Positions 4,386 to 63,927 of a DNA stretch of 64,000 nt are shown piece after piece (within the stretch, counting starts at the first letter, position 1; the number at the start of each line of letters is the position of its first letter). The notes under the pieces are model-generated. The model was not told where the DNA came from. It made no database searches and saw only the letters and a list, made by a program, of their open reading frames with translations. Made by a program: the position numbers and the translations under genes. Origin of the DNA: a virus (taxonomy: Duplodnaviria > Caudoviricetes); IMG/VR virus record IMGVR_UViG_3300021387_000109, positions 12,008 through 76,007 of that record; one strand, given 5' to 3'.

Positions 4386-5307
4386 ACTTATTAAAGTATT
4401 TTTGAGTCAAGTGTCTCATTCCCAAGTACAACATGGTAACTGCTAGAAGTACTCTAACTACTCCAAAATTACTCCATAGATCTAAAATACCTACTTTAAT
4501 AAAGATACCCCATAGAATACAAATAGCAAAGCATATAAGAGTACCTAGATTAACTCCAAAGGATTTATGCATCGCTACTGCAATAGAGTCTATAGTGGAT
4601 GTAGTAACACCTAGAACAGCTATGAATAATAGCCATGAACCAGTAAGAGAAAGTTGATAATGAGCCAGAAGATAAACCAAGGATAAATAGAAAGCAAAGA
4701 ATCCTGTAGCCCATTCAAAGGCATATCCATTGCCATTTACCTTTGCTCTTTGCCAATGCTGTAAGTCAGAGATAATACCTGACATTAAGATGCAAGCACT
4801 CCAACCAGCCCATATTAAAGAACCAGAATCTGAAGAAGGGAGTACTGTAATTGTTTGACCTTCATAAAAGCACAATCCTAGAAGAGTCATTAGAGCTAGT
4901 AAGGTAATAGCTCCTTGAAAGTTATCTGTAAAGATAGAGGCTTCAAGACCTCTCCAATACATAATACCTACAAAGAGTAATCCAATAGCAGAAACAATGA
5001 AATATGAATATTCTGAACCAAAAGGAATAGAACAGATATCATTAAGAATCTTTAGTTGAATTATTAGACAGAATGCTTGAATAATGGTAAGCAACCATTT
5101 AACAATCTTGTACTCAAGAATTTTTTCTGTAAGTATTCCTGTTTTATAAAGAATACCAAAGAAAGTTAGAGTTAGACAGTTAGCAGTAGCCCATACTAAA
5201 AAGGCTTCAGTACCTTTAGTTTGAGCTATTTGCATACCCATAATAAGAGATGTACCCCATGCCCAAGAAATGGCAATAGAGGCACCTATATAAGCAGATT
5301 TAAGCAT
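4384..5307 (-). CDS. Polytopic membrane transporter, sodium:solute symporter-like (about 10 TM segments)
   Basis: Almost entirely hydrophobic helices; ISWAWGTSLIMG resembles SSF TM1; DLQHWQRA resembles SSF DQxxWQR motif; short (307 aa) for the family. Confidence 0.65.
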   Translation of the reverse strand: MLKSAYIGASIAISWAWGTSLIMGMQIAQTKGTEAFLVWATANCLTLTFFGILYKTGILTEKILEYKIVKWLLTIIQAFCLIIQLKILNDICSIPFGSEYSYFIVSAIGLLFVGIMYWRGLEASIFTDNFQGAITLLALMTLLGLCFYEGQTITVLPSSDSGSLIWAGWSACILMSGIISDLQHWQRAKVNGNGYAFEWATGFFAFYLSLVYLLAHYQLSLTGSWLLFIAVLGVTTSTIDSIAVAMHKSFGVNLGTLICFAICILWGIFIKVGILDLWSNFGVVRVLLAVTMLYLGMRHLTQKYFNK

Positions 5308-5342
5308 AAAAAAAAATCCTCTGATTTTTAAACCAGAGGATT
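5308..5342 (-). terminator. Rho-independent terminator directly abutting the transporter ATG
   Basis: AATCCTCTG...CAGAGGATT stem followed on the minus strand by a T-run then ATG. Confidence 0.7.
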
Positions 5343-5360
5343 ATAGATTATTTAAGAAAC

Positions 5361-5588
5361 TTAGAGAGTTTCTTCAGTAATCTGTTCTTCAGGGAAGATT
5401 TCATTACCTTCTGCATCAAATTCTCTGGTTCTACCAGTAGCACCATCCTGCCAAAGATCCATATTAACGATCTTTACAGAAACCTTGGGCAGAGCATTAA
5501 GAGCCTGCTTGATAGCACCATAAAGTGCAACATCATCCTCAGCATCAGCGACACAAAGGACAGAAATATTAAAACGATTGTAAGCCAT
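5361..5588 (-). CDS. Hypothetical protein (75 aa)
   Basis: ORF track, tightly packed, acidic C-terminus. Confidence 0.7.
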   Translation of the reverse strand: MAYNRFNISVLCVADAEDDVALYGAIKQALNALPKVSVKIVNMDLWQDGATGRTREFDAEGNEIFPEEQITEETL

Positions 5589-5593
5589 AGTAT

Positions 5594-6061
5594 TTATTCA
5601 GTTTTAGTTTGTTCAGGAAGAGAAATCAAAGATTCCTCAAATGTTTGTTTAGGGGTGGATACTCCACATAGACCATTATAAATGGAATTCCTGTGATTTG
5701 CTAATGGATGAGCATATACACATGCCCTTAGCCAATCATCTCTAGTAATGGTAGATGGATTGAATGTAGGATCTCCTTGAGTAGAGAACCAGGTGTAAAG
5801 GATAAGAGTAGGCTTCTCTGTTGAAGAAGCGGGTCTCTTGATTCCTTGACAGCAATAACACCAAACCTTTCCATTACTATTAGGATACTCTTTACACCAT
5901 GCATCAGTAAAGAATACTAAAGATGGGTCAGGAATACTTGTAGAGGAGTCAAATGCAGATTTGGCTAAAGTATAAGTAATACCATCATCTGTAGTAATTT
6001 CTTTTACTGGTTCCTTATCCTTTATTTGTGAAAGGATTCTAGTAGAAGAATATACGTTCAT
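5594..6061 (-). CDS. Hypothetical protein (155 aa)
   Basis: ORF track, tightly packed; several Cys/Trp (WCYCCQG). Confidence 0.65.
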   Translation of the reverse strand: MNVYSSTRILSQIKDKEPVKEITTDDGITYTLAKSAFDSSTSIPDPSLVFFTDAWCKEYPNSNGKVWCYCCQGIKRPASSTEKPTLILYTWFSTQGDPTFNPSTITRDDWLRACVYAHPLANHRNSIYNGLCGVSTPKQTFEESLISLPEQTKTE

Positions 6062-6062
6062 A

Positions 6063-6368
6063 TTACTTATGATAGGTATCTAAAATAGCTAATCCACAAG
6101 CAGCTGCTAGATGAAGAAGATTCTCTTTCCAATCAGCAATATCACCCTTAGCCTCTGCATTCTTCAGTTCTTGATACTCCATATCAATAATTTTATTAGG
6201 AGTACCCATTAAAGAATGCCAAGTTTCAGGAGGATTCCATAGGATTTTAGAAGCATCCTTAAAGAACTCTGCATGCTGAGTTGTATCTTCAGAATGCTTA
6301 TGTTTACAAATAATAATGTAAGACATTTTAGATAAAAGAATGGTTGCACATGAGTTTATTATATGCAA
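6063..6368 (-). CDS. Hypothetical protein (true start may be the internal MSYII)
   Basis: ORF track, tightly packed. Confidence 0.6.
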   Translation of the reverse strand: MHIINSCATILLSKMSYIIICKHKHSEDTTQHAEFFKDASKILWNPPETWHSLMGTPNKIIDMEYQELKNAEAKGDIADWKENLLHLAAACGLAILDTYHK

Positions 6369-7179: not shown

Positions 7180-7683
7180 TTACTTTGTGAAAGTAACTGT
7201 ATAAGTACCATATACTTTATAGTTGCTACCTTTGCCTGAATATTTAGCTTGCCAGTGACTACCCAAATCAGGAACACCAGAACCAGCATATGAAAGAGAA
7301 TATCCTCCCATAGTAAGATTTGATACATATTGACTTGTATATATAATACAAAAAGCAGCACCGCTGTCATGCCTATACATAAAGTCTACACCATCAATAA
7401 TAGCATCAGCATACTCCCAAGTATTCTCACCATCTGAGTTGGGTTTTATATAAACGCTTCCACTACTCATGGGAGACCTATTGCTTCTTAAATACCCAAT
7501 ATCAGTACCAGCACTATTTTTATATCCAATAGTTTGATTTAACTTAGTAGAAGCATTAGAGTATCTATTACCTAAATCAGCACCATCGGATATTTTAAAT
7601 CCAATAGCACCTGCATTAGAGTTATTAACTAAGAATAGACTGTCTAAGTCAGTACCTGCACTATTCTTATAATTACTTGCCAT
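7180..7683 (-). CDS. Small tail-fibre-associated protein / possible adhesin tip
   Basis: Repeated YKNSAGTD(L/I) motif at N-terminus, aromatic/Gly-rich C-terminus, downstream of fibre genes. Confidence 0.55.
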   Translation of the reverse strand: MASNYKNSAGTDLDSLFLVNNSNAGAIGFKISDGADLGNRYSNASTKLNQTIGYKNSAGTDIGYLRSNRSPMSSGSVYIKPNSDGENTWEYADAIIDGVDFMYRHDSGAAFCIIYTSQYVSNLTMGGYSLSYAGSGVPDLGSHWQAKYSGKGSNYKVYGTYTVTFTK

Positions 7684-8842
7684 ATTTATTCTCTAACTCA
7701 TTAACTTTAATAACCAGTAAAGCAACTATTGCATTGTAGTCAAGAGATTTAAATCCTTTTTCATCAGTAGTAACTGCTTCAGGATATAACTTCTCTACTT
7801 CTTGGGCAATAAGACCTATCTTTCTATCTTTATTTCCTATAAAGTTATAAGAATAAGCATTGAGAGAAGATAGATTTGTATTATTAATCTTAATTAGATT
7901 CTCTTTCTTTCTAATATCTGATGTTGCTTGGAAAGAGGTAGCAAACATATTTCCATTAGTTTCATAAACACTTGAATGAGAATATGTTTGAGGATTAGCA
8001 CCTTGACTTGTAGCACCAATTAAAAATAGTTTAGAGGTACTATTTGTTGATCCAGCAGTATTTTTGGTGTCATTATCAGTTTGAATTGGAGGAGTGTATG
8101 TCTCCCATTTAGCAGTACCATCTGCTGACCATCTAAGAAACTGTCCATTTGAACCACCAGAAGGAATATGCTTATTACCAGCACTGGTTGGATGAACATA
8201 AGCGTTAGCTTTAACAAAAGCTGTAGTAGCTACTTTAGTAGAACTATCTTCCTTTTCAGGCGTAGGTGCATAAGGAGAAACTTTAAAAGTTTTAATACCT
8301 TTAATTTCTTCACTACCATCTATATGTACTACATCATCATCCTTAACTGCACCAATAGCATCTCTTAAAGCAACTTTTTGGGTATCAGTTAAATTCTGGG
8401 GATTATCTAATTTAAGCGCTTTAGCACTAATAATATCTTGTACAAATTTAGTGGACGCTGCTTTAGTAGAACTATCATCAGTACCTAAATTAGGTACTAG
8501 AGGGCTAGCACTAAATGTCTTAACACCTGAAATAGTTTGCTTGGTAGATAAAGTAACTACTGAACTAGCCTGAGGAACATCTATATTCTTTCTAGCCTGT
8601 TCCTTCTGAGCATCAGTTAATGCCTGAGAAACAGAATATTTAACAGCGGAACTATCAACAGAATCTTTAACTGCTTTAGGAGTAACAGCAATACCTCCTG
8701 AACTACCTGAATTACTTAAAGTATCAGATAATTTAACAGCACCTTTTTTATCTTTAGTAGCACTAGGAAGAATCTCTGAATTTAGAATTCTAGTAGCACC
8801 ATTACCCTGAAATAATACTTTCCAAATCTTAGGAAAATCCAT
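7673..8842 (-). CDS. Tail fibre protein with fibre repeats and C-terminal peptidase S74 chaperone domain
   Basis: AT..KKGAVKLS, repeated QxLTDAQK.QARxNI and QTISGVKTFxxSP units; FQATSDIRKKEN...GLIAQEV...SLDYNAIVA S74 domain. Confidence 0.85.
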   Translation of the reverse strand: MDFPKIWKVLFQGNGATRILNSEILPSATKDKKGAVKLSDTLSNSGSSGGIAVTPKAVKDSVDSSAVKYSVSQALTDAQKEQARKNIDVPQASSVVTLSTKQTISGVKTFSASPLVPNLGTDDSSTKAASTKFVQDIISAKALKLDNPQNLTDTQKVALRDAIGAVKDDDVVHIDGSEEIKGIKTFKVSPYAPTPEKEDSSTKVATTAFVKANAYVHPTSAGNKHIPSGGSNGQFLRWSADGTAKWETYTPPIQTDNDTKNTAGSTNSTSKLFLIGATSQGANPQTYSHSSVYETNGNMFATSFQATSDIRKKENLIKINNTNLSSLNAYSYNFIGNKDRKIGLIAQEVEKLYPEAVTTDEKGFKSLDYNAIVALLVIKVNELENKYGK

Positions 8843-8851
8843 GATATACCT

Positions 8852-11149
8852 TTACTTGTTTTCTAATTCTTTAATTCTAGCTTCTAGTTTATTAACCTTG
8901 GCTACTAACACAGCAACTACAGCATTGTAGTCAAGACTTAAGAATCCCTTTTCATCTGCTTTAACAGCATCAGGAATAACATCTTGTACTTCCTGGGCAA
9001 TTAAACCCGTATGTCTTCCATTAGTATCTTTTAGAATGTAATTATAAGATTTAATGCTTGATAGATTTAAGTCACTTATTTCTTTAATATCTGACTTTTT
9101 TCTTCTATCAGAAGTTGCTTGAAAAGATGAAGCTTTAACTTCTTTATTAAAAGTAAATGCATTATTTACTTCTACTTGACCAACATTTGTGTCACTACTA
9201 TTAAAGAATGCTATACCTGTTGCAGTACTTGTTTGGGTTTTAATGCAAAATTTTCCACCAACATTATGATCACCAAAACTTGCATCATCCCCAGATTTAT
9301 TCCAAGTATTATTTGCGAGATTAATAGCACCAGTTAGGGTACCTCCACTTAAAGGTAAATAACTATGTGTATGATTACCAGCAGCTGCTGTCGTTGCTGT
9401 AGTGCCTATAGTTAAATTACTCTTATTATTCCAAGTATATTTTTCTCCAGTGGTAACTAAAGATACATCTGTTCCTCCACTAGCAGCAGTTTTAGAAGAA
9501 TAAGTTGTATTGTTATCAGCAGGAGTCTTGAAGATAACACTAGTACCTCCTGCTGTTAACTTGTAAACAGTATTATGAGCAAGTGTTACAGTGGCTGTGC
9601 CTGAGTCAGTAGCAAGAGTTGTTGTGTGGGTATGATCACCCTTAGCAGCAGTAGTACTTGTAGTGCCTAAAGCAAGGCTACTCTTATTATTCCAGGTATA
9701 TTTCTCACCTGTAGTTACTAGAGAAACATCAGTACCACCACTTGCTGCTGTCTTTGAACTATAAGTGGTATTGGTATCAGGAGGAACTTGCCAAGTGCCA
9801 TCTTCTCTTAGGTACTTTGTGGTACCTGCTGTTGTAGAAGGAGCAGGAACCAAACCAGCTGCTGCGCCTGAGCCTGATTTAACAAAGTTACTATAAGTGG
9901 TATTGTTATCTTGTTGTGTAAATGTACCTGTAGTACCATCAACACATGTGTATGTAAATGTTGTACCACTTCTAGTAATAGTAGTAATAGCCTTATCAGC
10001 CTTGCCTTTTACATAATCGGCAATTTGTTTAGCAGGCCATACTCTATTAGCAGTATCAGTACCAGTAGTTAATTGAGCAGTAGTACCTGCTGAGTAAGTA
10101 GTATTAGTGTCTTTTACCTTCTGGTTCGTTGTACTAATACCTACAACGTGACCTTTAGCATCTCTGCTTAAAGTAATTCCAGTAATTACATTGTATTCAG
10201 TATTAAGTGCATATGCACCTGTACTAGATACATCATTTGTTAATGCAGAATCAGCATTAGCACTAGGAGTATAGTGATTACCAACAGAAGTAACTTTTGT
10301 ATCTGTATTGGTATCCTGAGTAACTAAAGTATCAGTAGTATCATCACCTCTGGTAAAAGTAATTGTTTTCCCAGAAATGCTTAAATCTTTAATGTAATTT
10401 GCACTATCACTATCTAGTTTATTTCCAATATTGTTAGCTACTGTAGTAGCAAAATTGGGATCATTACCAAGTGCTGTAGATAATTCAGAAAGTGTATTGA
10501 GAGTTTCTGGAGCATTATCAACTAATGATGCTAATTCATTAGCAATTTTTGCATCTAATACTTTTGCAGTAATTGATCTTGCAGTTGTGGCTGTACCTGC
10601 TAAAGCTTCAGCCTCTGACATGGCTGAGTATTTAGTATTAGTATCCCAATTAGAAAGTTTCCAACAACCTGTAAAAGAAGTTGCAGTATCATTTATAGTA
10701 ACTGTAGCTGTATCTTCTGCATCATATACTAATACAAGTATCGTACCTACAGGATAATGTGTAGTTACTAATGTGTCTGCATTTAGAAGAACTGGATGTT
10801 CTCCCAAATTATTAATATTTAGCGTTACACCATCAGAAACTCCTGCTACAGGTACTTTATAACTGATGGTTAAACCTGAATGAAGGGCATTTATATTACT
10901 TATTGTACCTGCCCAAATTGATCTAGTAACTCCTTTAGTACCTACAGTACCAGTAGGAGAACTAACATAATAAATACCATCCTTAGGGGATGAAGCCAGA
11001 CTAGTTAAAGTCTGTTTGTCTTCAGCAGACATGAATCCTGCTTTAGACGTTGTTGCATTACTATGAGTATGAGAAGCTCGGGCAAACTTCTCTTTACTAC
11101 CTTCTGCAAATCTTTCTAGATTATCTGGTGTAACAATATTAACTGTCAT
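8852..11149 (-). CDS. Long tail fibre protein with C-terminal peptidase S74 chaperone domain
   Basis: LVDNAPETLNTLSELSTALGNDPNFATTV fibre motif, Thr-rich DTNTTY repeats, FQATSDRRKKSD...GLIAQEV...SLDYNAVVA. Confidence 0.88.
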   Translation of the reverse strand: MTVNIVTPDNLERFAEGSKEKFARASHTHSNATTSKAGFMSAEDKQTLTSLASSPKDGIYYVSSPTGTVGTKGVTRSIWAGTISNINALHSGLTISYKVPVAGVSDGVTLNINNLGEHPVLLNADTLVTTHYPVGTILVLVYDAEDTATVTINDTATSFTGCWKLSNWDTNTKYSAMSEAEALAGTATTARSITAKVLDAKIANELASLVDNAPETLNTLSELSTALGNDPNFATTVANNIGNKLDSDSANYIKDLSISGKTITFTRGDDTTDTLVTQDTNTDTKVTSVGNHYTPSANADSALTNDVSSTGAYALNTEYNVITGITLSRDAKGHVVGISTTNQKVKDTNTTYSAGTTAQLTTGTDTANRVWPAKQIADYVKGKADKAITTITRSGTTFTYTCVDGTTGTFTQQDNNTTYSNFVKSGSGAAAGLVPAPSTTAGTTKYLREDGTWQVPPDTNTTYSSKTAASGGTDVSLVTTGEKYTWNNKSSLALGTTSTTAAKGDHTHTTTLATDSGTATVTLAHNTVYKLTAGGTSVIFKTPADNNTTYSSKTAASGGTDVSLVTTGEKYTWNNKSNLTIGTTATTAAAGNHTHSYLPLSGGTLTGAINLANNTWNKSGDDASFGDHNVGGKFCIKTQTSTATGIAFFNSSDTNVGQVEVNNAFTFNKEVKASSFQATSDRRKKSDIKEISDLNLSSIKSYNYILKDTNGRHTGLIAQEVQDVIPDAVKADEKGFLSLDYNAVVAVLVAKVNKLEARIKELENK
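9419..9772 (-). repeat. Two copies (9419-9511, 9680-9772) of an identical 31-aa module inside the long fibre gene
   Basis: NTTYSSKTAASGGTDVSLVTTGEKYTWNNKS twice; 18 of 31 codons differ synonymously (hand alignment). Confidence 0.9.
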
Positions 11150-18150: not shown

Positions 18151-18172
18151 ACATTTACTTTTGGAGGTTATC

Positions 18173-18583
18173 ATGTCTTATCGTCTTTGTGTTGCTGGTT
18201 CTCGTAACTTCAACAACGTTCAACTCGCTGAAGAGGTTCTGAGCCAAGTGTTCAACTTCATTGCCAAGAAGCATGGTGATGCCATCACCATTATCTCTGG
18301 AGGTGCCAAGGGCGCTGACTCCGTTGGAGAGTTGGTGGCTCATAAGCACCACTACGACATTGAACGCTATCTTCCCGATTGGGATAGGTATGGCAAGAGT
18401 GCTGGTTACAAGCGTAATCAGTCGATGTGTGCAGCCAGTAATGGCTGTGTGGTGTTCTGGGATGGTTCCAGTAGAGGGAGTCATCACATGATCGACATCT
18501 GCCGTAAGGCAGGTAAGCCGATCATGGTGGTTGACATGAACGGAAGTGTCATGGACGTGTCCAAGATTCCGTTCCTGTCGTGA
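18173..18583 (+). CDS. SLOG-superfamily protein (YspA/DUF2493-like)
   Basis: VAGSR, ISGGAKGAD, DWDRYGKSAGYKRNQSM, FWDGSSRGSHHMI; GGAGG SD before ATG 18173. Confidence 0.88.
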   Translation: MSYRLCVAGSRNFNNVQLAEEVLSQVFNFIAKKHGDAITIISGGAKGADSVGELVAHKHHYDIERYLPDWDRYGKSAGYKRNQSMCAASNGCVVFWDGSSRGSHHMIDICRKAGKPIMVVDMNGSVMDVSKIPFLS

Positions 18584-18589
18584 AGAGTT

Positions 18590-18630
18590 AGGAGCCAGAG
18601 CATGTGGTGTGCTCTGGTTCCTGCTTTTTT
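18590..18630 (+). terminator. Rho-independent terminator
   Basis: GGAGCCAGAGCA/TGCTCTGGTTCC stem plus T6. Confidence 0.7.
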
Positions 18631-18645
18631 AATAGGTAAATAGTC

Positions 18646-19053
18646 ATGAAGTTTAGAGATATTTATTGGTTCTTGAGCAATTTCTATCCTTGCAGGATTA
18701 CTTTCAATGGACATACATATTTATGTGCTGAAGCGGCATATCAAGCACAGAAATGTCCTGAAAGAGCCATAGAATTTATTAGTCTGAATGGTCTTCAGGC
18801 CAAAAGATTGGGTAGGCATGTTGCAATGGCTAAAGACTTTAATGAGCACAAGGTATACATCATGTATCAGGTGCTTTATTACAAGTTCACTCAGAATCCT
18901 GCTTTAAAAGATAAATTGCTTGGTACTCATGATCTATATCTGCAAGAGGACAATACATGGCATGACACCTATTGGGGTGTTTGCAATGGTATTGGACAAA
19001 ATGTGCTTGGCAGATTGCTCATGTGTGTTCGAGACGATTTAAAACACATCTAA
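18646..19053 (+). CDS. NADAR family ADP-ribose hydrolase (YbiA-like)
   Basis: FLSNFYP, AEAAYQAQK, KFTQN..L...LL.T, DTYWG, GQNVLGRLLM.VR. Confidence 0.92.
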   Translation: MKFRDIYWFLSNFYPCRITFNGHTYLCAEAAYQAQKCPERAIEFISLNGLQAKRLGRHVAMAKDFNEHKVYIMYQVLYYKFTQNPALKDKLLGTHDLYLQEDNTWHDTYWGVCNGIGQNVLGRLLMCVRDDLKHI

Positions 19054-19062
19054 TTCCTATAT

Positions 19063-19081
19063 GCCCTGGCGGGCTTATATG
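19063..19081 (+). promoter_or_regulatory. vRNAP hairpin promoter P7 (predicted +1 G19081)
   Basis: GCCC-TGGC-GGGC-TTATAT-G; template loop GCCA; same loop-to-G spacing as P1-P6. Confidence 0.65.
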
Positions 19082-19108
19082 GCAAAACTAACCCAAAAGG
19101 AGACAATC

Positions 19109-19624
19109 ATGCGTGATTCCAACGCTATCCAGATGCCTGTTCCCACTTCCACTGTTTCCGTTCCCACCACCACCTCTAACAAGAAGTTGACCCAGAAATG
19201 GATTAACTTCGGCATCGTTTACGACAAGAACAACCTTGAAACCTCTGATGCAGGATTCTGTGCTGCTGGGTACGGAACTCCTGCGGATGACCTTGAGGCT
19301 CTTCGCAAGAAACTTGTTAGAGGTACGAAGCAGAGCAGAGCAGTCTACAACGGACTGGTGAACATGCATCAGTACTATACCAATCTTCTTAAGGAAGGTG
19401 GTCAGTCTGAATATCAGATTATCGGGTCTCTTACTCCCGAATCTGAAAGAAAGGCTGCTGTTGAAGAAATTCTCAACAATAACCACATTTCTGAAGAACT
19501 CAAGGCTCAGATCTTGAGTGCGGCATTCCCTGAAGGTCCGAAGTGGGCTATTCAGTATCACAGACAAGGGATCAAACAGGAATCTGAGGATTCTTCGTTT
19601 GTTATTCCTACCAATCGTCTTTAA
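19109..19624 (+). CDS. N4 gp2-like ssDNA-binding RNAP II activator, paralog A
   Basis: QKWINFG, GTPADDLEAL, EGGQSEYQII, AIQYHR align by eye to gp2-family QFWLNIG, GIPLD, EPGEE..I, VQLRR; AAGGAG SD before ATG 19109. Confidence 0.6.
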   Translation: MRDSNAIQMPVPTSTVSVPTTTSNKKLTQKWINFGIVYDKNNLETSDAGFCAAGYGTPADDLEALRKKLVRGTKQSRAVYNGLVNMHQYYTNLLKEGGQSEYQIIGSLTPESERKAAVEEILNNNHISEELKAQILSAAFPEGPKWAIQYHRQGIKQESEDSSFVIPTNRL

Positions 19625-19635
19625 AAAGGAGCAAT

Positions 19636-21807
19636 ATGCTTAAGGAAATTTTCGAAAGCATGAAGGCAAGTGATTCCCTTCAAGAGGTGCAGGTCAAGAA
19701 CGAACAGACCTACGCCAATGTTAATTACTTGCCCTTCGCTGAAGAGGCTCTTTGGAAGAACAATCCGATGCTGAAGGACTACATTAAGTCCATCAGCAAT
19801 GGAGAAACTGAAGAAAAGTTCTTCAACAAACTGGTTCTTCAGATGGCACTTCAGAAGTGCGCTGACCTCAATACTCTCTGGGGTATCATGAGGACAGGTT
19901 ATTCTGAAAACAAGAACCAGTGGGTTCTTGACCTCATCAAGAGAGGTCTTGAAGCGAATCTCATGAGCCTGTCCAGCAATGGCAAGTTCATGTACCGCTA
20001 TGCTATCGGTGAAGAGGAAGAACGTGTTCTTGATGCGTTCTTCTATCCTCTGCCCTCTGTTGTGCCCATGAAGAAACTTAAGAGCAATTTTGATACCGGT
20101 TATCAGACTCTCAAGGGTCATGGACTGGTGTTGAACAGCACTGACCTTACTAAAGATCAGGATATCTGCCTTGATGTTCTCAACAATTTCCAGTCCATGA
20201 CTTTCAAAGTCAATGAGACTGTGTTGAACAATGTTAATCCCGCTTGGGATTTCGTTAGCACTCAGAAAGCAACTGAGAGTTACGAAACCTACAAGAGCAG
20301 GGTTGACCAGTTCGTGAAGTTTGAAGAGCAGTCTAAGGCTGTTCTTGAGGCACTCAAAGGACTTCCGCTTCATCTCACCGCAGAGTGGGACAAGCGTGGA
20401 AGGCTCTACGACATGGGATATCACTTCCACATCCAGTCCAAGGAATGGACTAAAGCCGCTGTAGACTTCTACATTGGCTTGCCCATCCTGAACCAGATTC
20501 ATGAAGCCAAGGGTTTCAAGGGACAGCAGTTCTCTGACATGGATTACCTGCGCATTGACATTGCAGGCTCTTTCGGTCTTGACAAGAAGACTTGGAAAGA
20601 ACGTATTGCATGGACAATGCAGCATGAAGAAGCAGGTGATCTTCTGTCTAAGGAACTCCTGTCTCAGGCTGAATCCCTTCCGCTGTACATGGCTGGTGTT
20701 CAGGCTCTAATGGATGCCAAGGCAGGCAAAGAGGTTCACTATGCAGTTAACCTCGATGCAACTGCTTCTGGTACTCAGATTCTTGGTACCCTGCTTGGTG
20801 ATGAGCAGGCCATGATGATCTGCAACGTACTTCCTGTTGCTGATCAGAGTGGTGAAGTGATGCGTCAAGATTCGTATACCATCATTCACAAGAGCGTAAT
20901 GCAACTCTTGGGTGGAGCGAATGTCATGACGTACTTTGATCCAGACCTTAATGGAATGGGTCAACGTGCCATGCCTGTATCCAGAGCACATGCCAAGTGT
21001 GCGGTGATGCGTTCCTTCTATGGATCTGAACTGATCATTGATCAGGTCTATGGAGAGGATTCTCCTGCATCTCGGGCATTCTGTCAGGCAATGGAGATTC
21101 ATGCTCCGTATGCCTGGGCATTCAACAGTGCCATGCTCGATGCCTGGGACCCTCAGGCAACTGAGTATAACTGGACGATGCCAGATGGCTTCGAGGTGCA
21201 TATCCCTGTTGAAGGTCAAGTTGCTGTTGACCTGATGTGGGGTGATACGCCTGTCACGCTCACTTATGTCAAGAGTGGCATCACCAAGAAGAAGGGACGT
21301 GCTCTTAGTGCAAACTATACGCACTCCTTCGATGCTCTGGTTCTCAGAGAGATGTATCGCCGTTGCCATTACAATCAAGGCATGGTGAACTACGTCAATG
21401 GTGTGCTTGATGGAAAGATCACCAAGGGTAATGCAACTTTGGAACAGAAGGCTCTTTGTGCAAGACTTGCAATTCTTGCCAAAGAGAGTGGGTTCCTTAG
21501 TGCAAGAATCCTTGAGTGTATCAATCCTGATACCATGTCCATTCTCACTGGACTTGAAAGCAAGATCAAAGATCTCATTGCATCTCTGCCCTCTGAGCCG
21601 TTTGAGATCATGAGCATCCACGATTGCTTCAGGTGCCTGCCTCGCTACGGCAATGACGTGCGGTATCAGTACACGAAACTCCTGTCCGAACTGAACAAGA
21701 GCAAGTGTGCTCGATTCGTCTGTGCCCAGATCAGCCCCAGACTCGTTATCAGTGATCCTGTTGACGTATCTGAGGAAATCCTTGAAGCCAATTACGCTTT
21801 GTCGTAA
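19636..21807 (+). CDS. Middle RNA polymerase (RNAP II), gp15-like and gp16-like halves fused in one 723-aa ORF
   Basis: gp15-like FYPLPSVVP, NFDTGY, DICLD, WDKRGR.Y; gp16-like YLRIDIA..FGLDK..W.ERI, LDATASG.Q (motif A), R..AK..VM..FYGS (motif B), IHDCF (motif C); no stop between. Confidence 0.92.
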   Translation: MLKEIFESMKASDSLQEVQVKNEQTYANVNYLPFAEEALWKNNPMLKDYIKSISNGETEEKFFNKLVLQMALQKCADLNTLWGIMRTGYSENKNQWVLDLIKRGLEANLMSLSSNGKFMYRYAIGEEEERVLDAFFYPLPSVVPMKKLKSNFDTGYQTLKGHGLVLNSTDLTKDQDICLDVLNNFQSMTFKVNETVLNNVNPAWDFVSTQKATESYETYKSRVDQFVKFEEQSKAVLEALKGLPLHLTAEWDKRGRLYDMGYHFHIQSKEWTKAAVDFYIGLPILNQIHEAKGFKGQQFSDMDYLRIDIAGSFGLDKKTWKERIAWTMQHEEAGDLLSKELLSQAESLPLYMAGVQALMDAKAGKEVHYAVNLDATASGTQILGTLLGDEQAMMICNVLPVADQSGEVMRQDSYTIIHKSVMQLLGGANVMTYFDPDLNGMGQRAMPVSRAHAKCAVMRSFYGSELIIDQVYGEDSPASRAFCQAMEIHAPYAWAFNSAMLDAWDPQATEYNWTMPDGFEVHIPVEGQVAVDLMWGDTPVTLTYVKSGITKKKGRALSANYTHSFDALVLREMYRRCHYNQGMVNYVNGVLDGKITKGNATLEQKALCARLAILAKESGFLSARILECINPDTMSILTGLESKIKDLIASLPSEPFEIMSIHDCFRCLPRYGNDVRYQYTKLLSELNKSKCARFVCAQISPRLVISDPVDVSEEILEANYALS

Positions 21808-21815
21808 CTGACTAG

Positions 21816-21855
21816 CCCTTGGGAGACTTCGGTCTCTCAAGGGTATTTTTTTTTT
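21816..21855 (+). terminator. Rho-independent terminator (C-UUCG-G loop)
   Basis: CCCTTGGGAGAC-TTCG-GTCTCTCAAGGG plus long T-run. Confidence 0.9.
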
Positions 21856-21918
21856 CTTCCAGATTTCTAAAAGATTTCGCAGTCTTGGGTTGGAATCTAT
21901 TTTTCTTTCAGATTTCTT

Positions 21919-21938
21919 TGCCGCTTCGCGGCATTTTG
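21919..21938 (+). promoter_or_regulatory. vRNAP hairpin promoter P8, triloop type (predicted +1 G21938)
   Basis: TGCCGC-TTC-GCGGCA-TTTT-G; template loop C-GAA-G as in N4; same 10 nt loop-to-G spacing as P1-P7. Confidence 0.65.
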
Positions 21939-22018
21939 GCAATAGTCACTTTCAACCGATTTCGCAGCTTTGGAACGGGAAGTGATTTTGCTTCTCAAAC
22001 TTAAAGGAGATTTTTATA

Positions 22019-22503
22019 TGCGTACCGATGCACAGATTAACGAAGCGATGGCTACTCTTCAGGCAGTTTTCGGCAAGCCTGCTGTTCCTGCGACCGCACC
22101 TATGACAGTCACTGAAAAGAAGGCATCTCAGTACTGGGCGCATCTTGGTTTTATTACGAACCTTGATCTGCTTCAGGAACATAACATCAAGGGTTTGACC
22201 TATCTCTTTGAGAGTGGTTTCCCTGTTGATGGTATTAAGGACAAGCTTGAGAACTTCTCAACCAATGAAGAAGCCGTTGAGTATAACGAGCAGATTGGTC
22301 TGAAGAACGGAATCCGAGCTGATATTATTGCAGCTATGGCTGATCTTGAGTGTGGTGACTTCAAGGCTGTCGCACTTACGGATGATCCTGCTAACGGAGA
22401 TCCCATTCTTGTGATTCGTAGGCTTGATCCGAACAACAAGAGAGCTGAGATTAATCTCAAGAAGACTCTGAGTATGCGTACTCAGGCTCGCAAGACCTTC
22501 TAG
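22019..22503 (+). CDS. N4 gp2-like ssDNA-binding RNAP II activator, paralog B
   Basis: KASQYWAHLG, SGFPVDG, DLECGD, LVIRRL align to gp2-family motifs; AAAGGAG SD before ATG 22019. Confidence 0.65.
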
Positions 22504-22510
22504 TTAATCC

Positions 22511-22551
22511 AAGGGGAAGTAGATTAATTTCTACTTTCCCCTTATTCTTTT
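22511..22551 (+). terminator. Rho-independent terminator
   Basis: AAGGGGAAGTAGA/TCTACTTTCCCCTT stem. Confidence 0.8.
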
Positions 22552-51659: not shown

Positions 51660-51887
51660 ATGTCAAAAGACGTTGAATTTGTAGAAAACCTGTCTAATAA
51701 CTGTCCTAAGTGGTTATTCAAGTTATTAACCAGATTTTTCTTTATTCCTTACTTTACATTAAACCTTTGGTTCGTAAAGTTTAGACTTCATTGCTTGGAT
51801 AAATACCATATTACTTCTGCTTGGTGGAAGTTATTACTGATATTTATCGCAAGCTATGTAGCAGTAGTTTTACTTACTCAGTATTAG
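51660..51887 (+). CDS. Small membrane protein (75 aa)
   Basis: Two hydrophobic stretches; AAGGA SD; convergent 4 nt overlap with vRNAP stop. Confidence 0.55.
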   Translation: MSKDVEFVENLSNNCPKWLFKLLTRFFFIPYFTLNLWFVKFRLHCLDKYHITSAWWKLLLIFIASYVAVVLLTQY

Positions 51888-54800
51888 GCTAACATATTTG
51901 GAACAGCCATAAGTGGATGCATAGTAAAGGCATTGGCGAGCATCTCAGGACCAATAGCAAAACTCAGAGTACCTCTGAACATTGCACCTAAGAAGTTATC
52001 TGTAATGATATTGTTAATGCCTAGTAAGCTAGGTGTAGCACAAGCCATTAAAACAAACAATGGATTATTTCTTACAAGAGTACTCATTGAATGAAGCACT
52101 CTAAGTTTGTAGTTCCAGAACCAAGCCAAACCTATATTTTCCAAGTATCCTCTGACTCTACCTGGATGTCTATTGTAATCAACAAAGGCATCTCTCAGTT
52201 CTTCCTGGATCATCTTAGGAGTCCAACCCTTGGCTTCTAAATGCTCTTTAACTATCTGCTTGGCAATAAAGTCACCATACATTAGTGTCTTATTTAATGC
52301 TGTATAAAGAGCAGTATCCTTGGTAATAAGACCATACTTAACTACTGAAGATAGAGAATCAGGAATTGCTGATTCAAGTTTCTTGTAGAGATCTCCACTA
52401 AAATAAGTGGAATCATCAGCAGCAACACCCATTTCTTCTACAGTATTCATATGACCCCAATTAACCAATTGACTTACTGGAGACTCATTAAGAGCCTTTG
52501 TAGTAGAGTCAATAATTGCCTGATACTTATTATGCATGGCTGAACCAGCAGGATAAGAATCTCTCATAGCAACAGCAGATTGAAGTTCAACTGTATTCTT
52601 TAAGTATGCTTCGCTGGCAACCTGTATTTCCTTATATCTCTTAATCATGGTGATAGGACTAATACCATAAGCCATGCAGGTAAAGATATTAGAAATAATG
52701 TTACCGGCTAGAACACTTATAGAACGAACCAGAATAGTTTCTTTGGCTCCCTTAACACCCTTTTGAAGTATTGCTTCACCATTCTTCAGGTAATAAACAC
52801 ACTTGGGTCCAAGGAACAATTTAAGAATATTTGTAATAGTCTCAACAGCTTTGGGAGACATGTTGGTTTTACCAGTAAACATGTCAACCACAGAGAATTC
52901 TCTAATACCAATCACTTCATAGACCAAGTTCCTTGGAACCATAAATACTCCTTCCTTGCCATACTCAGCCTCAATGAGTTTATGGTATCTAGGTGGAAGC
53001 ATATCTAATGCCTCTTTAACAAGAGGATTCTTTTCTGCCAATTCATAAAGATTCACATATTCAGAATCTTTTAATGAATATCCTTTTCTATTTCCAGCAG
53101 CATCTTTTCTACCATTCTTCCAAAGGTCTGCCAACATCTTAAGAGATGAAATGGCAGTAGCCTGAGAACTTACTTCTTCCAAGACACGACCTTGGAAAAT
53201 ACCAATCTGATCAGAGGCTTTATCAGAAGGCTTCAGGTACTTATCTTTAAATTCCTTGGAAACAATAGGTTCAATACCTGACCAATTACCCTTATGATCA
53301 AATACCTGACGGAATGGAATACCTTCTTTAATTAGATCTTGAGCCTTGTTTTGTGGCAATACCTTGCCAAAACTATTAACGCTAAGACCATTATTACTGT
53401 CAGAACCTCTGTAGGACATACGAGTATGTCTGACAATACCTTCAGAGAATCTAGAGTTGCCACCAAAAGGTGTGTACCAGACATTCCTATTTTCCTTGGT
53501 TCTAACAAAGCCAGAATCTGATAAGTCAACATCAGAATACACAATGGATGCTTCAGTAGTCTGCTGTAAAGGAGTAAAGCCCTTATGAGCATTCAGTCTC
53601 ATGCCAAAGGAAATATTTACATTGGCTTTATCCTGAGTATCCAAGGCTTTTTTATAGTTATTAAACATACCTTCCAGACCAGTTAGATCTGTCTTGGCTA
53701 GTTCACTAACTTGAGTAGTATCCATTAAGGATAAAGCCTTCAGAGAAATATACTTGTCAAGATGCTTTGCTCTTTCTAATGCTTTCTGTTGAAGTATCTG
53801 TCTAGATTTACCCTTTTGATAGGAGTTGCTTGCATCCCATACAATGGATAAAGCATTGGTTCTAAGGATACCATTTGCTTCACCTGTAGCAAGATACTTG
53901 GCTAAATTATCAGCAAGTAACTTTTGTTCTGCTGTAAGGTTAGCAGCTTGTAAGGATGCTCTCATTTGAGCACCTCTAGCATTGCCATCAGTAACATACT
54001 TAATAGCATCATTAAAATCAAAGCTGGATGCTAGATCAGTCTTGATTAGATTATTGTAGATAGCTGTATCCTGCTCACCAGTTAACTCATTTTTAAAGAG
54101 TTTTCTTAGAGCATTGGGAACAACGTGAGCAGCCCTATAACGTACAGAGTCTACTTCAGACTTGGATGCATTAAGTTTGTTATAAATTTCAGTAGCACCA
54201 GTTCTTGTATCTGAACCAGTGATATCAAGGCATAACCTACGAATCCATTCAGGCATTTCCTTCTCACCAATGATGCTTAATACAGGCTGTAAACCAGCAT
54301 CAACAAATGGACTTAAAGGAGTATGTCTAAGGACACTCTTAATGCCATTTCTAAGAGCTATATTGGCATTATCTAAAGATTTCTCTATTCTATTTCTCTG
54401 TTGTACCTGATTTAATTTATCTGCATGATCTGCAATAAAGTTAATCAGTTGAGACATCTCTTGTTGAGCATTTCTACCATTAATGTCATAAGAAGACTTT
54501 TGAGCATGCTCAAGCATGTTATTGCCAAAATTCATTAAAGCTCTATCTATAGCCATGCCATGAGTAGCCTTCTTATACTTGGTGTAAGGAATCTTCTTGA
54601 GAACATTCTGGATTTCAGGAGATGCCATAGCCATAGCAAAGAAATGTGCTACACCATAAGATTCTGGATCTTTGGTTGCATCTGTGTTGACAGACTTATT
54701 AATAAATAGAGCATCATACTTAGCCTGACCATTACCACTAAACATGGATGGTTTAATGTGTTCCATAGCATTCTTATAGATCTCGTTCATATATGTGAAC

Positions 54801-57800
54801 TGATTACCTTGGAATGGCTTGGAAATCATCATTAATCCAGCGGCAGATAGAGCAGTTGTTGTATCCAATGGGTCTAATCCAAAAGTTACAAATGCATCTC
54901 TCATACTGTTTTCCATAGCATCAAATACCTTGTTTGGTAGAGGTTTGCTGATGTATGGAGTAAATATACTTCTGAATCTCTGGAAGAACTGATTGCCCGA
55001 TTGAGAAGAACCAGAACCAAGAGAATATAGAGCATTCAATGCTGTTTGAGAGGCAGTAGAAGTTACTCTTGCCTGTGCAGTACCTAGAACACAATGAGCA
55101 AGAACATCGTATTCAGTAACTTCAGGATTAACACCAGGATTTATAAATGTAGGTACATAATCCTTTGCAAAGCCAATTTGGAAAAAGTGTCGGATACCTT
55201 GGATGGTAGCAGCAATAATATCTCTAATTTGCTTTAACCAAGAAGACCCTTTAATTTCATTAATTAAACTATCAGCAAGAGTTTCACCAAAAATTTCTTT
55301 AATCTGAGTTTCATTGGTTGAACCAGATAACATTGCTGTTACATGAGGACTGGTTAAAGCATATGCACAAAATTCTTGCACAGCAACATAATCATTTGGT
55401 GCATTTTTAATTAGTTCTGCAATATCTATAACAGATTTAGAAAAAGAACCAATAAAAGGATTACTTTTATCTTTAGGGTTTTCTAAATAATCATTATATC
55501 GACGTATAAAGTCATTCTTTAAAGTAATGATATGTTCAATTTTATGTACAGCATCTTCACCAGCACTATTACGAAATGCTTCTGGATCAGTAAAGTAATT
55601 ATCTAATGCTGACTGTAAACTCATGTGAATAAGTTCATGCACTAGATTTTGATAAAATGCTGTGTCTTCCTCATCCTTTTGAACTACTACAATTGCTTTA
55701 CTAGCAGCTATGTAAATACCCTTAAGGTTAGTCGGTATACGTTTATTATTACTTTGACCCTTCTCATTTACATCTAAAGCACGAACAAGTTTTCTAGCAT
55801 CCTTTTCAGAAGATACTGTGTAAAGTTTTAGTCCATTAAAAGCATTCTTGAATGCTGGATTATTAAAACTATTCTCCATTAATGCCTTTAAGAATGAACT
55901 TAAATGCATAGCTTGGGGGGATGCAATCTTTTTCTTTCCTTTTCTCTCATTAAGTTTGGAAGATAACTTAAGCATTCTGGTTCTATAGCCATTAATAATC
56001 TCTAATGCTCTCTCTCGGGATACTCCAGAGAAATCTACATAAGATCCATTAATGCCTAAACTATCAAGAAGAATATCTGTCATAGGAGTATTATCAGGAG
56101 TTCTTTCCTTAACAGATCTACTCTTCTCAGATTTTTCTTTAGCCTTATTATCTTCAGCTATTCTATCTTGAGTTGCTTTATCACTTTCATTATTTAATTT
56201 TTTGAGTTTCTTATTGTAGTATTCATTAAGTTTTGCAACGATTGCTTCAGTAGAAGCATCTTTATATTGCATAACTCGATCATAACAAGCCTTTTCTTTA
56301 GGATCTTTAGAATTTTCTAAAGCTTTAAATTCTTCTAAAGACAGGTGTCTTAAAGAACTAACTTGATTTGGATCAATTAATACTGAAATTGCTGGTTCAT
56401 GCGTACCTGCAATTTGTTCATTACACATACCCATACAAAGCTGTGCATAGATTCTTGCCTGTCTGTCATTGTCAAGACGAGTAAGGTTATCTATTAGATC
56501 ATCCCAGATGTTTGACTTGGATGATGGGTCTAAGGATCTCCAATCTAAGAGTTCATTGAAAGCAATTGAAGATCTTGAATCACGTTGTTCAAGATTTAAC
56601 TCAGGATTAATCATACTGTTCTTTTCACCAAACAGTTGATTCATAGCATCTGCTATATTCTGAGCTTCTCTTAAATCTTTAATATATTCTTCAGGCTTAT
56701 GATCCTTATCTCTATTTTTATAAAGATCGTATTCAGACTTAAGGAAAACACCGACACCTGTTTCGTTATATAGATAGTTGTTCTTAGGTTTCTTTCCATT
56801 CTCGTCTGGCATATCATGGAAATTCAATGCATCAAGACGAGACATCATAAATTTAACTAATTCAGCATTCTCAGGCTTTTTCATATTTTCCTGCATATGT
56901 TTGACTGACTCTAAGAGCCAGAAACTGGTATGCATGGTATCATCTGAAAAGATCTTGCCTATAGTCTTAGATGCTTTAATGCCTACTTCTTTAGCGTCAT
57001 TTGGATTGGTTGCTGTTCCGTCATAGATAGTTAAGATATTCTTAAACAGCGCAGACAGATCCATTGCATTAGCAAATGCTACGTCACCCATTGAGAATGT
57101 TGTACCTGGATCAGTAGACATCTTTGGATTTTCTGTCATTCTGACAGTAGACTCTAGCTTATCAGCAGATTTATCTGACATAAGCCCAATCTGATCATCA
57201 GAATTGGTAGAAGCACTTGTCATGGAAACCATGTTAAAAGTAACTTTGGTATTAGCATCCTTACCAATATTGACTAATCCAACAAACTCTTGAGCATACT
57301 GCATGGCAGTATTAAGGTCTTCTGAAGAAAGACCAAGAACAGGCTGTTCTTTCTTATTAACAGCAAGATTCTTTTCCTTGATTATTTGCTGAATCTTATA
57401 GTCATAAACAAATTGGAAAATAGCAGTTGCCAAGTGAGATATGCCAGTTTTTGCTAAAGTTAAAGGTCTAGCCTGTTCATAGGCTTCAGCGTAACCCTTA
57501 TACATTTCCTTGGCAGCAGTACCCTGAAGAAGATTCTTCATGTTCTGTTCTGTCCTTGGAGATATATCAAAAGTCTTGAAACTGAATCTACTGAAATCAC
57601 CAGATTGCAGACCTTTATTAATAATTGTCTGTCTTAAATTATTGGGTTCACCTCTATTATTTTTCTTGGTGATTTCCCAATAATTGGTCTTGAACTTATC
57701 AGACTTATCTTCCCAAGAAATATTGGTTGAATAGACAATCATTGATCCAATGTGATCACTGAATCTTTCTTGAATCTCTTTCCTTAGATCAGCCTCTGCC

Positions 57801-60800
57801 TTATTCTGAGGATATCTATAAGCACTAACAATCTCTCTGAGTTGCTTCATTCTAGCTTCTGGATCAAGATCTTCTAATAGACCTAAATCTGCCATATAGA
57901 AGGCTAGAGCATTAAGATCAGCATTTAGTAATTGATACTCACCTTGGCCTTTACCCCATGTAAGAGTACCAACACCATTAAGTTCATCAGGTTTCTTATA
58001 AATGACAGCATCAACTGGTTTTCCATTAGCATCAATTATGGTTGTAGGTAATCCAGAATGAATTATCTCATCTAGAATTTCATTAGCATCCGAATATAGA
58101 TCTGCAAGATTTCCAATGAAGTGTTTAAGGATATTGCCTGCACAAGCAGCATCAGTACCTGAATAGCCTGTAGGAATAACCTGTTTCTTTAACCAGGTTC
58201 TATCAGCAGAAGCATCTCCTTCTTGCATATGAGCAAGTGCTTCTACCATTGACCCAGAAGCAATCTGAGCAAGAATTTGATCCTTAAAGTTAATGGTTCC
58301 ATTAAGGAAGAAATCAAGCACTTCCTTATAGGCAGTAACCTTATTTCTTGCATGTTTAGCATCTTCAGATGCATCATTAAAGGATGCTACATACTTGTCA
58401 TGGTCGTCTTTAACTTTTTCAGACAAGTGTCTTAAGGCACTATCACCATTCTTGGAATAGAAGTCTGCTGTAGTTTTATATCTTCTTGGCTTAGATGTTA
58501 CTTTAATGGTCATACCATTGTAAGTTATGCCATCTAAGTTCATGGAAGGACCATAAGTTAATTTACCATACCAAGCACGATATCTAGCAAGAGGATGTAC
58601 TTTACCAAAGAACACACCTAAAAGACCTAGACGTTCTAATTCATTAACAGAGAACTGACCTACATTTTGAGTCATGTTCTTTGTACAAGTACCATTAGAC
58701 TTACCATCAAAGTCAATATAAACATCAGTAGTGAAGTTTTTTAACTTCTCTGGATCTTTCTTGGCATCTGTATACTTGATTAATTCATCAAGGCAATGGA
58801 AGAAGTTATTGTTGATATCTCCGTTGTCAATGCCTAAGGCTCTAAGAGTTTTATTAAATGCTAAAGCCTGTGCAATTGTTGGATGTTCAATAGCAAAGTA
58901 CTTTCTAGCCTCTGTAACAATAGGATTCTCAATAGTAACAGTATTACCATTGGCATCTACTGCCTGTACATCACCAAAGGCTTGTTCAAGTTCTGCTGTG
59001 TAATCTTCCTTATTCATGTAGTCTTCAGGCTTAAGACCAAAGATAGCCTGTCCTAGACCACCTAGGAAGTATGATTTAGCATCAGAATCCTTGGAAAGAT
59101 CTATTGTGCTTCTCATGCAAGTAAAGCACTCACGATAAACCTTATTGTTCATCGGATTGGTACCTGCATCCAGTTGGTCTCTATTTGCTCTACTGAATGA
59201 AGGAGCAAAGTGAAGTACATAAGGATCTAGGGCTTTCTGAAGATCAACATTGTCTAATACATCATCAATGGTTGTACCTGTTGGAATCAAGCCATCAGTA
59301 ATACCCTTGCTGATAATACCATTAACTCTATTAATAACATCTTGCAGAGCAAACTGCATTGGTAATGCTTGAGACTGTAAAATTGACTTTTTAATGTCAA
59401 TATCTGTCTCTCTATAGACAGTACCTTGTTGAGCCAGAAGAACATCAACACTTCTTTCTGACATAACATCATAGGAGCCATCTTCTTTTCTGGGCAGACA
59501 TCTTAAATAATTCTTGATATTAGCCCATTCTGCTTTATATTCTTTAGATGCTTTATTTCTACCTGCTTCAATCTGGACTTTATCAAGTTTATCCTTACTA
59601 TGAACCTTCTTAAACTTAGCACTCTTACTAAAGAACTTTCTTACAATACCACTGGTTCCATGATCCAGATCTTGTTTGGTTAAGAAGGTAAATCTATCCT
59701 TCTTGCCTGCTTCTCTATCTTTCTTTAACTGTTCTCTAAAGGCTTCAGAGTAGTCAATATCAACAACAGAAGAATTTTCTTTAGCAAAGATATCATCAAA
59801 GATGGTATCTAAGCCATACTGAGAATACAGTTTAAAGGCATCTTTCTGTTTTGGATCAAACCAGACAAGATCCTTGGTTCTCTTACCAGCATTGGGATTT
59901 TCATATTCCTGTGTTTGATTAGAGTTATTCTGACCTTGTTTGTTATTCTTGCCTTTATGCGCATTAGAACTCTTTGGTGTTCCTGCATGTCTATTTTCAC
60001 TTCCAGCAGAAGCAAAGACATCATTAATGCCATCAAGATTTATATTCTGATTCTGAGTATTACTCTGAGATTGTCCTGCTTGTTTTTTGGTAGGTTCTCC
60101 TTTGCCTTCCTGTAGAACAACCTTAGTAATATTTATGTACTTGGCCTCTTTAAGTGCATGAAGAGCTTCATAAGCCATAGCCTTATAAAGATCCTCTGCA
60201 AGGCCAGAAGGAAGTCTGGTATCAAATTTAACACCAGAATAGTTCATCATCTTAGATGCAATGGATTCCACCATATTGTCAATGGTAGAGCCATACATTA
60301 AAGCACGACCTTGATCTCTCTTCTTTGGATCTTTCAGATAATCACTTAAAGTGACACCATAAGTTTCTTCTACTCTAGATGCATCTAGATAAGATTGTCT
60401 AAGACTTGCTCCAATAGCAGCCTGTAAAGTAGCAGTTGTTAAGCATTCAACAAAATCTTCATCTACCTTAAATTGCTTGTTCTTAAGGGCATCAAAATCT
60501 AAACAATTTAAAGCGAGATACTGCTTGGAATAACCTAATGTAGCATTAAGAGATGCTCTAATATCATCTCTATTGCCTAGACTATTTTTTAGATTGTCAT
60601 AGGCTGTTTTCATCTGCATATTTAAATTATTTGTAAGGGCAGATTTGAAATCTTCTGCCAGTACTTTATTGCAGATATCATTCCAAGATTTCTTAGCATT
60701 TTCATCTGTTTTAGCCAAATCTCTTAACTGACGTAGAGATCTTGCTAAATCAGGATTATTAGCTGTAATGTAGTTAATAAGGTTATCAGCATCTCTATTT

Positions 60801-63883: not shown

Positions 63884-63891
63884 AGTAGCAA

Positions 63892-63927
63892 TAAAAAAAA
63901 AATACACCTTGTAATGAGGTGTATTTT
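63892..63927 (-). terminator. Rho-independent terminator just upstream of vRNAP
   Basis: AAAATACACC/GGTGTATTTT stem followed on minus strand by a T-run. Confidence 0.75.

Follow-up and report, generated by a model that had tools for sequence, protein, structure and literature searches.

RNAP II of bacteriophage N4 is a heterodimer regarded as a split T7-like enzyme, that is, a textbook "single-subunit" RNA polymerase (RNAP) in two pieces. In a 64,000-nucleotide stretch of Caudoviricetes DNA (positions 12,008 to 76,007 of the IMG/VR record IMGVR_UViG_3300021387_000109; hereafter the window), we found the counterparts of the two N4 subunits, gp15 (RNAP1) and gp16 (RNAP2), joined in one open reading frame (ORF) at 19636-21807. 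Judging by its sequence, this ORF encoded, as one chain, a middle-gene polymerase of the N4 RNAP II type, which is a minimal member of the T7 family. The single-chain N4 middle polymerase was real and conserved, and probably functional. It represented a known enzyme in a new layout: the single-chain form had no description in the literature searched, and the window carried one of several metagenome lineages of it. The gene and its parts were as follows.

19626-19632, + strand: Shine-Dalgarno sequence AAAGGAG of the polymerase gene, four bases ahead of its ATG, read from the sequence
19636-21807, + strand: single-chain RNAP II gene, 723 open codons and then TAA at 21805-21807
19636-20475, + strand: RNAP1/gp15-like module, residues 1-280, from matches to 6dt7_A and PHROG 2166
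20389-20403, + strand: DX2GR motif, D252-R256
20476-20529, + strand: linker, residues ~281-298, from junction alignments, with the N4 gp15 end and the gp16 start on its two sides
20530-21804, + strand: RNAP2/gp16-like module (palm and fingers), residues 299-723, from matches to 6dt7_B and PHROG 2051
20755-20757, + strand: motif A, D374
20983-21024, + strand: motif B, R450-G463
21619-21624, + strand: motif C, H662-D663

The initial annotation of this DNA had read gp15 and gp16 homologs as one polypeptide of 723 amino acids (aa), and the family searches bore this out. The N-terminal part (residues ~17-280) matched phrog_2166, the family to which N4 gp15 itself was assigned at 1e-118, and residues 297-723 matched phrog_2051, the N4 gp16 family, at 9e-108. 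The only sequence matches in the PDB were the two chains of the N4 enzyme; phmmer placed 6dt7_A (RNAP1) on residues 31-278 at 4.7e-29 and 6dt7_B (RNAP2) on residues 297-723 at 2e-84. In addition, the protein matched phrog_414 at 3e-38 and the T7-type RNA polymerase domain PF00940 with 36.6 bits against a cut-off of 22. The gp15-type motifs WDKRGRLY...KAAVDF and the gp16-type motifs A, B and C that had been noticed in the letters were all located and mapped onto T7 residues. Namely, W251-DKRGR-L257 corresponded to the DX2GR motif and KAAVDF to residues 273-278. In the alignment, T7 residues D421, R425 and D537 fell on the identical D252, R256 and D374, R627/K631/Y639/G640 on the identical R450/K454/Y462/G463 of motif B, and H784 and H811/D812 on the identical H563 and H662/D663, the latter pair being motif C. 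D374, K454 and D663 were invariant among 60 sequences. The linker of about 20 residues that had been placed at 20470-20530 agreed with the position obtained here.

An AlphaFold2 model built with a 60-sequence alignment predicted a right-hand polymerase fold for the 723-aa chain. It formed one compact fold with a predicted local distance difference test score (pLDDT) of 93.9 and a predicted template modelling score (pTM) of 0.93, and the linker itself had a pLDDT of 96-97. The best Foldseek matches of the model were 6dt7_B, with a template modelling (TM) score of 0.94, and the whole chain of T7 RNAP, with an E-value of 2.7e-21; T7 RNAP and mitochondrial RNAPs were matched at probability 1.00.

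The open junction was found in more than one assembly. Other public assemblies contained one-piece homologs of 723-740 aa, with 98, 83, 58, 55 and 40% identity, and the length of the linker was identical across all five members of the clade. Two separate genes giving a heterodimer, the layout expected of an N4-type RNAP II, were thus replaced by a single ORF throughout this clade. As the initial annotation had stated, no stop or frameshift was found at the junction within the ORF 19636-21807, nor was there a Shine-Dalgarno sequence with a conserved ATG. The sole methionine near the junction, M302, was a leucine in the homologs P0003, P0004 and P0007, and a conserved internal start was ruled out because M302 was not conserved. 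No second, separate RNAP II gene was found in the complete 76,007-bp record. Moreover, a DNA run of sheep gut from an independent study gave contigs over 20118-20581 and 20459-20807 that spanned the junction with no indel. They carried seven differences within 20463-20484, every one at a third codon position, as would be expected of a reading frame that is translated and under selection. The sequence support that had been asked for at the junction was therefore obtained from assembled contigs, not from raw reads, and this limit counts against our interpretation. Together, the independent homologs and the junction-spanning contigs ruled out an assembly artefact. Two RNA-library contigs, X4 and X5, also overlapped the polymerase gene; they cannot show transcription and were not used as evidence of expression.

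The single-chain form recurred in several metagenome lineages and so was not unique, contrary to what the initial annotation had implied. When 1.84 billion cluster representatives were scanned with HMMER, 1429 relatives were obtained, and the layout was judged on the best 150. Sixteen of these 150 were single chains across the junction (634-772 aa), and the rest were gp16-type proteins of about 400 aa. The single-chain clusters came from metagenome assemblies only, none had an NCBI or UniRef name, and several were located on 57-76-kb contigs; gp2 genes stood upstream in both of the N4-like single-chain contigs that were inspected. P0056 (654 aa) was rejected as a fused form, since it resembled one in length only and was a gp16-type protein plus extra sequence without the gp15 part. 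Of the 80 best IMG/VR loci, one was fused (L013, from the window's own clade), 71 had the halves on separate ORFs, and 8 had the gp16 half only inside the flank.

For cultured phages, tblastn was run with five queries (the whole protein, two junction windows and two other fused forms), and no fused gene was found among the matches listed, all of which were in 2-3 pieces. Fused forms that were already common and described in this family would have counted against the initial annotation. They were fairly frequent in metagenomes, but we found no description of a fused N4-type polymerase in the literature searched, so the earlier statement that no case was known held for that literature and for the cultured phages among the matches listed. 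According to a 2015 review, phages with a virion RNAP all have the heterodimer, whose origin and advantage are unclear (PMC4496689). A 2017 paper distinguished three layouts only, namely the T7 single gene, the adjacent genes of N4 and the separated genes of G7C, and proposed that a homing endonuclease had disrupted an ancestral single gene (PMC5418858).

In comparison to N4 RNAP II (gp15/RNAP1 of 269 aa and gp16/RNAP2 of 404 aa; PDB 6DT7), whose halves were 32% and 41% identical to those of the window protein, the single-chain enzyme belonged to the same minimal size class (723 versus 673 aa) and had the same motifs. It differed in that a single gene encoded a single chain, in which an 18-residue linker, predicted to be ordered, lay at the subunit boundary. 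T7 RNAP and the Autographiviridae enzymes (PF00940) were likewise single chains, and their catalytic residues corresponded one to one with those of the window; however, the window protein was 160 residues shorter than T7 RNAP, about 15% identical to it, and had an insertion of ~13 residues exactly at the N4 split site. This insertion formed part of the linker, which in the window clade ended in QQFSDMDYLRIDIA. Other uncultured single-chain N4-type RNAPs (e.g., P0009, P0010, P0025, P0030, P0079, P0104 and P0129) shared the architecture of the window, but they were separate lineages with 23-34% identity, and their junctions were either non-homologous or short and T7-colinear.

The anatomy of the junction was informative about how the two layouts are related. 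All of the ~60 separate gp16-type proteins examined started at the same residue, with MxxF(T/S)xxEYLxIDIA, and the last linker residues of the window clade (QQFS...) matched the MxxF(T/S) N-terminus of these separate proteins. The F(T/S) motif was missing from six other single-chain forms, which were exactly T7-colinear at the junction. In all other single-chain forms, those of the window clade among them, this motif was preceded by extra residues that differed in length and were unrelated in sequence. Such a pattern is the trace to be expected if the tail of gp15, a spacer and the head of gp16 had been joined by read-through on independent occasions.

Split relatives demonstrated how small such a step could be. 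In nine split IMG/VR loci both genes were in the same frame, with TAA as the sole separator. In L015 (2720-2760) and L016 (3775-3815), a Shine-Dalgarno sequence inside the end of RNAP1 was followed by TAA, one codon and ATG, so that RNAP1 and RNAP2 were in tight translational coupling. Since only TAA and one codon stood between the same-frame genes and the ATG, one substitution would fuse genes of the L015/L016 type. The halves were separated by 19 open codons or two stops in L014 and L017. Recoding of the stop codon in the same-frame relatives was ruled out, the separator being an ordinary TAA with a Shine-Dalgarno sequence and ATG. The nearest non-fused relatives of the window clade, P0017 and P0014, were genuine split forms: P0017 had a 255-aa gp15-like gene 14 nt ahead of its gp16-like gene, and P0014 had a NADAR gene (L094:4604-5008) between its polymerase halves. 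Both shared with the window a layout in which the terminase lay next to the early genes and was encoded on the opposite strand.

The trees demonstrated that the family had switched between the one-gene and the two-gene layout repeatedly at one fixed site. One tree was built from the gp16 part (83 rows; T7, SP6 and Syn5 as outgroups) and another from the full length, for which both halves were used and the columns of the junction were dropped (54 rows, 634 columns). A quick IQ-TREE search was unreliable, as a constrained tree was 112 log-likelihood units better, and the results are from careful searches. The N4-type enzymes, including the window, were separated from T7, SP6 and Syn5 by a 100/100 branch. 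For the gp16 part, placing the split forms in one clade was rejected by the approximately unbiased (AU) test (p-AU 1.9e-6). In the full-length tree, at least four changes of state were forced by supported branches, and the following fused and split forms were sisters.

Fused P0025 and split P0077, support 100/100
Fused P0129 and split P0152, support 100/100
Fused P0009 and split L015, support 97/90

Several fused forms were thus sisters of split forms at 97-100%, which pointed to separate events. On the contig of P0077 (L096), the halves were located at 1954-2751 and 5001-6197, 2.2 kb apart, and six small genes lay between them, one of which encoded a ribosomal L12-like domain (PF00542). With the site-heterogeneous model, the window clade grouped with P0054 at 97/83, and five supported nodes (100/99, 92/88, 99/94, 94/91 and 96/93) were ahead of the window clade. 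This tree, and the corresponding AU test, used posterior mean site frequencies (PMSF), and 13 fusions were needed on it versus 37 independent splits. A phylogeny with T7-like RNAPs, as suggested in the initial annotation, thus revealed repeated layout switches and did not settle the rooting of the window clade.

For the one-chain layout of the window clade, we considered a re-fusion of adjacent, same-frame and translationally coupled genes to be the probable origin, because the anatomy of the junction, the nearest relatives and parsimony all favored it. With the stop codon lost, the 18 residues of today's linker would have formed from the tail of gp15, a short spacer and the N-terminus of gp16. 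The fusion would predate the divergence of a clade formed by the window, P0003, P0004/P0006, P0007 and probably P0054, whose members are now 27-40% identical, and the linker would have been under selection ever since. We infer this direction of change, as well as the expression timing and the gp2-like dependence discussed below.

Several points weighed against the re-fusion. The window clade joined the split P0017 at only 89/45 in the full-length tree, where the base of the N4-type radiation was a polytomy. Placing the window clade beside the outgroup had a p-AU of 0.60 under LG+G4, with the constrained tree 12 log-likelihood units better, and a p-AU of 0.29 under PMSF. Furthermore, the six T7-colinear fused forms may be unsplit relics, and it is plausible that an unsplit ancestor survived in some lineages.

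These points lent some credit to an alternative that we hold tentatively, namely that the window clade never split and retained the ancestral state of one gene that gave rise to the heterodimer of N4. The linker would then be a lineage-specific loop where other lineages were later cut, e.g., by insertion of a homing endonuclease, and such a disruption of an ancestral single gene has already been hypothesised (PMC5418858). The basal placement beside the outgroup agreed with a relic, as did the position of the window clade outside the classical split clade containing N4 (99/99) and the presence of T7-colinear single-chain forms in the family. On the other hand, a relic would demand many independent splits at one identical residue, in the proportion of events given above for the PMSF tree. 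Moreover, the linker was an insertion relative to T7 exactly at the split site and carried the N-terminal motif of separate gp16, and those close relatives that shared the gene layout of the window clade were split. The choice between an unsplit ancestor and a re-fusion, as the initial annotation had framed it, was the right question and has been narrowed toward re-fusion, but the basal position was not rejected by the AU test. Because of this and of the basal polytomy, we put re-fusion no higher than probable and kept the relic as the lesser possibility. It is conceivable, if doubtful, that a never-split lineage has survived in the window clade, which would then be an extant link between T7-like single-subunit enzymes and the heterodimer of N4, in a phage with the virion-RNAP programme already present. 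If so, the virion-RNAP strategy would be older than the split, and the split would have come later and repeatedly, always at one residue, e.g., through a homing endonuclease or the spread of a mobile stop/start cassette.

The chain may also be cleaved after translation, which would count against a single-chain enzyme. We considered it improbable that one chain is translated and then acts as two pieces, through proteolysis of the linker or an extra internal start. M302 was located just past the linker with AAGGGA 15 nt upstream, and the heterodimer is the rule in cultured relatives. However, the spacing of AAGGGA to M302 was poor, this residue was replaced in the three homologs named above, and the linker was both predicted to be ordered and strictly conserved in length. 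Finally, it was very improbable that the ORF is a decaying pseudogene or owes its fusion to an error in sequencing or assembly, with the phage really making two subunits or none: a full-length copy of the exact DNA was present in one run only (X1, probably the source run) and the other support was at the contig level, but five diverged homologs from other samples had the same open junction, independent contigs crossed it with no indel and no changes other than synonymous-type ones, the catalytic residues were all intact, the predicted fold was of high confidence, and the genome lacked a second RNAP II gene.

The split was not required by the N4 programme, because natural single-chain versions existed inside phages with a virion RNAP. 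There were matched natural pairs, namely fused P0025 and split P0077, fused P0129 and split P0152, and the window clade and split P0017, which could be used to test the role of the split in assembly, stoichiometry and cofactor binding. In addition, a compact one-gene polymerase of 82 kDa would be easier to express and engineer than a heterodimer. The value of the finding is limited in that neither the enzyme family nor the way it works is new, and one-piece forms are fairly frequent in metagenomes.

The virus genome was represented by a complete record of 76,007 bp that had terminal repeats, and the runs containing the phage DNA were ruminant or animal gut samples. It was recognised as an N4-like phage because it encoded a virion RNAP as well as N4-type primase, DNA polymerase, helicase and terminase. 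A podovirus-type genome of ~70 kb with a giant virion RNAP is the setting expected of an N4-type RNAP II, and the record agreed with this. The virion RNAP was ~500 residues longer than that of N4 (~3500). The following features were found around the polymerase gene and elsewhere in the window.

18161-18583: YspA/SLOG-type gene in the early region just upstream (PF10686, 1.8e-12)
18589-18623: terminator-like hairpin ahead of the NADAR gene
18646-19053, + strand: NADAR-domain gene (PF08719, 9e-25)
19061-19624, + strand: upstream gp2-like gene, 187 aa, candidate cofactor binding single-stranded DNA (phrog_4099, 5.9e-5, a weak match)
21815-21855, + strand: intrinsic terminator after the polymerase gene, with a 13-pair stem, a TTCG loop and a T run
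22018-22503, + strand: second gp2-like gene, 161 aa (phrog_4099, 4.8e-4, a weak match)
22513-22540: terminator after the second gp2-like gene
51884-63907, - strand: virion RNA polymerase, 4007 aa (phrog_2206, 2.9e-218)

The NADAR gene probably opens the transcription unit of the polymerase because it was the first gene past the terminator at 18589-18623. By analogy with N4, the polymerase gene would be an early gene transcribed by the injected virion RNAP, in a unit of NADAR, gp2-like and RNAP II genes with a terminator on either side. The polymerase would in turn transcribe the middle genes on single-stranded or melted DNA, helped by the flanking gp2-like proteins.

Weak matches suggested that the enzyme probably uses cofactors of the gp2 type. 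The upstream gp2-like ORF ended 11 nt ahead of the start codon of the polymerase and contained a QxWINxG motif that aligned to N4 gp2. The second one began at ATG 22018, which was preceded by AAAGGAG at 22004-22010 (the mechanical ORF start was TTG 21970), and was 26% identical to N4 gp2 over 92 residues. Both ORFs had the motif QxW(I/A)xxG in common with N4 gp2, and an ORF beside P0004 that was homologous to the upstream gene had a faint match to PF26984 (Phage_N4_Gp2). These assignments were weak (E-values of 6e-5 and 5e-4, where N4 gp2 itself matched phrog_4099 at 6e-50), and a Pfam search of the two gp2-like ORFs gave no match.

A virion RNAP gene was common to the window's genome and N4, and the window's genome also had candidate genes of the gp2 family. 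The two gp2-like genes flanked the polymerase in the window, whereas N4 has a single gp2 gene ~3.5 kb upstream. Pseudomonas phage LUZ7 provided another comparison, as its RNAPII is an N4-type middle polymerase that needs a small cofactor, Drc, which binds single-stranded DNA (PMC7145618). In contrast to the window, the LUZ7 enzyme is heterodimeric, and Drc is unrelated to gp2, while the window had gp2-family candidates instead.

In the spacer 21856-22017, ahead of the second gp2-like gene, there was a hairpin GCCGC-TTC-GCGGC at 21920-21932 (5-bp stem, 3-nt loop), and the motif GATTTCGCAG was repeated near 21872 and 21959. The hairpin and the GATTTCGCAG repeats could be promoter elements for that gene. 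Elsewhere in the window, two adjacent tail-fibre genes on the - strand (7673-8842 and 8852-11149) had a common C-terminal domain that matched the distal tips of many phage fibres.

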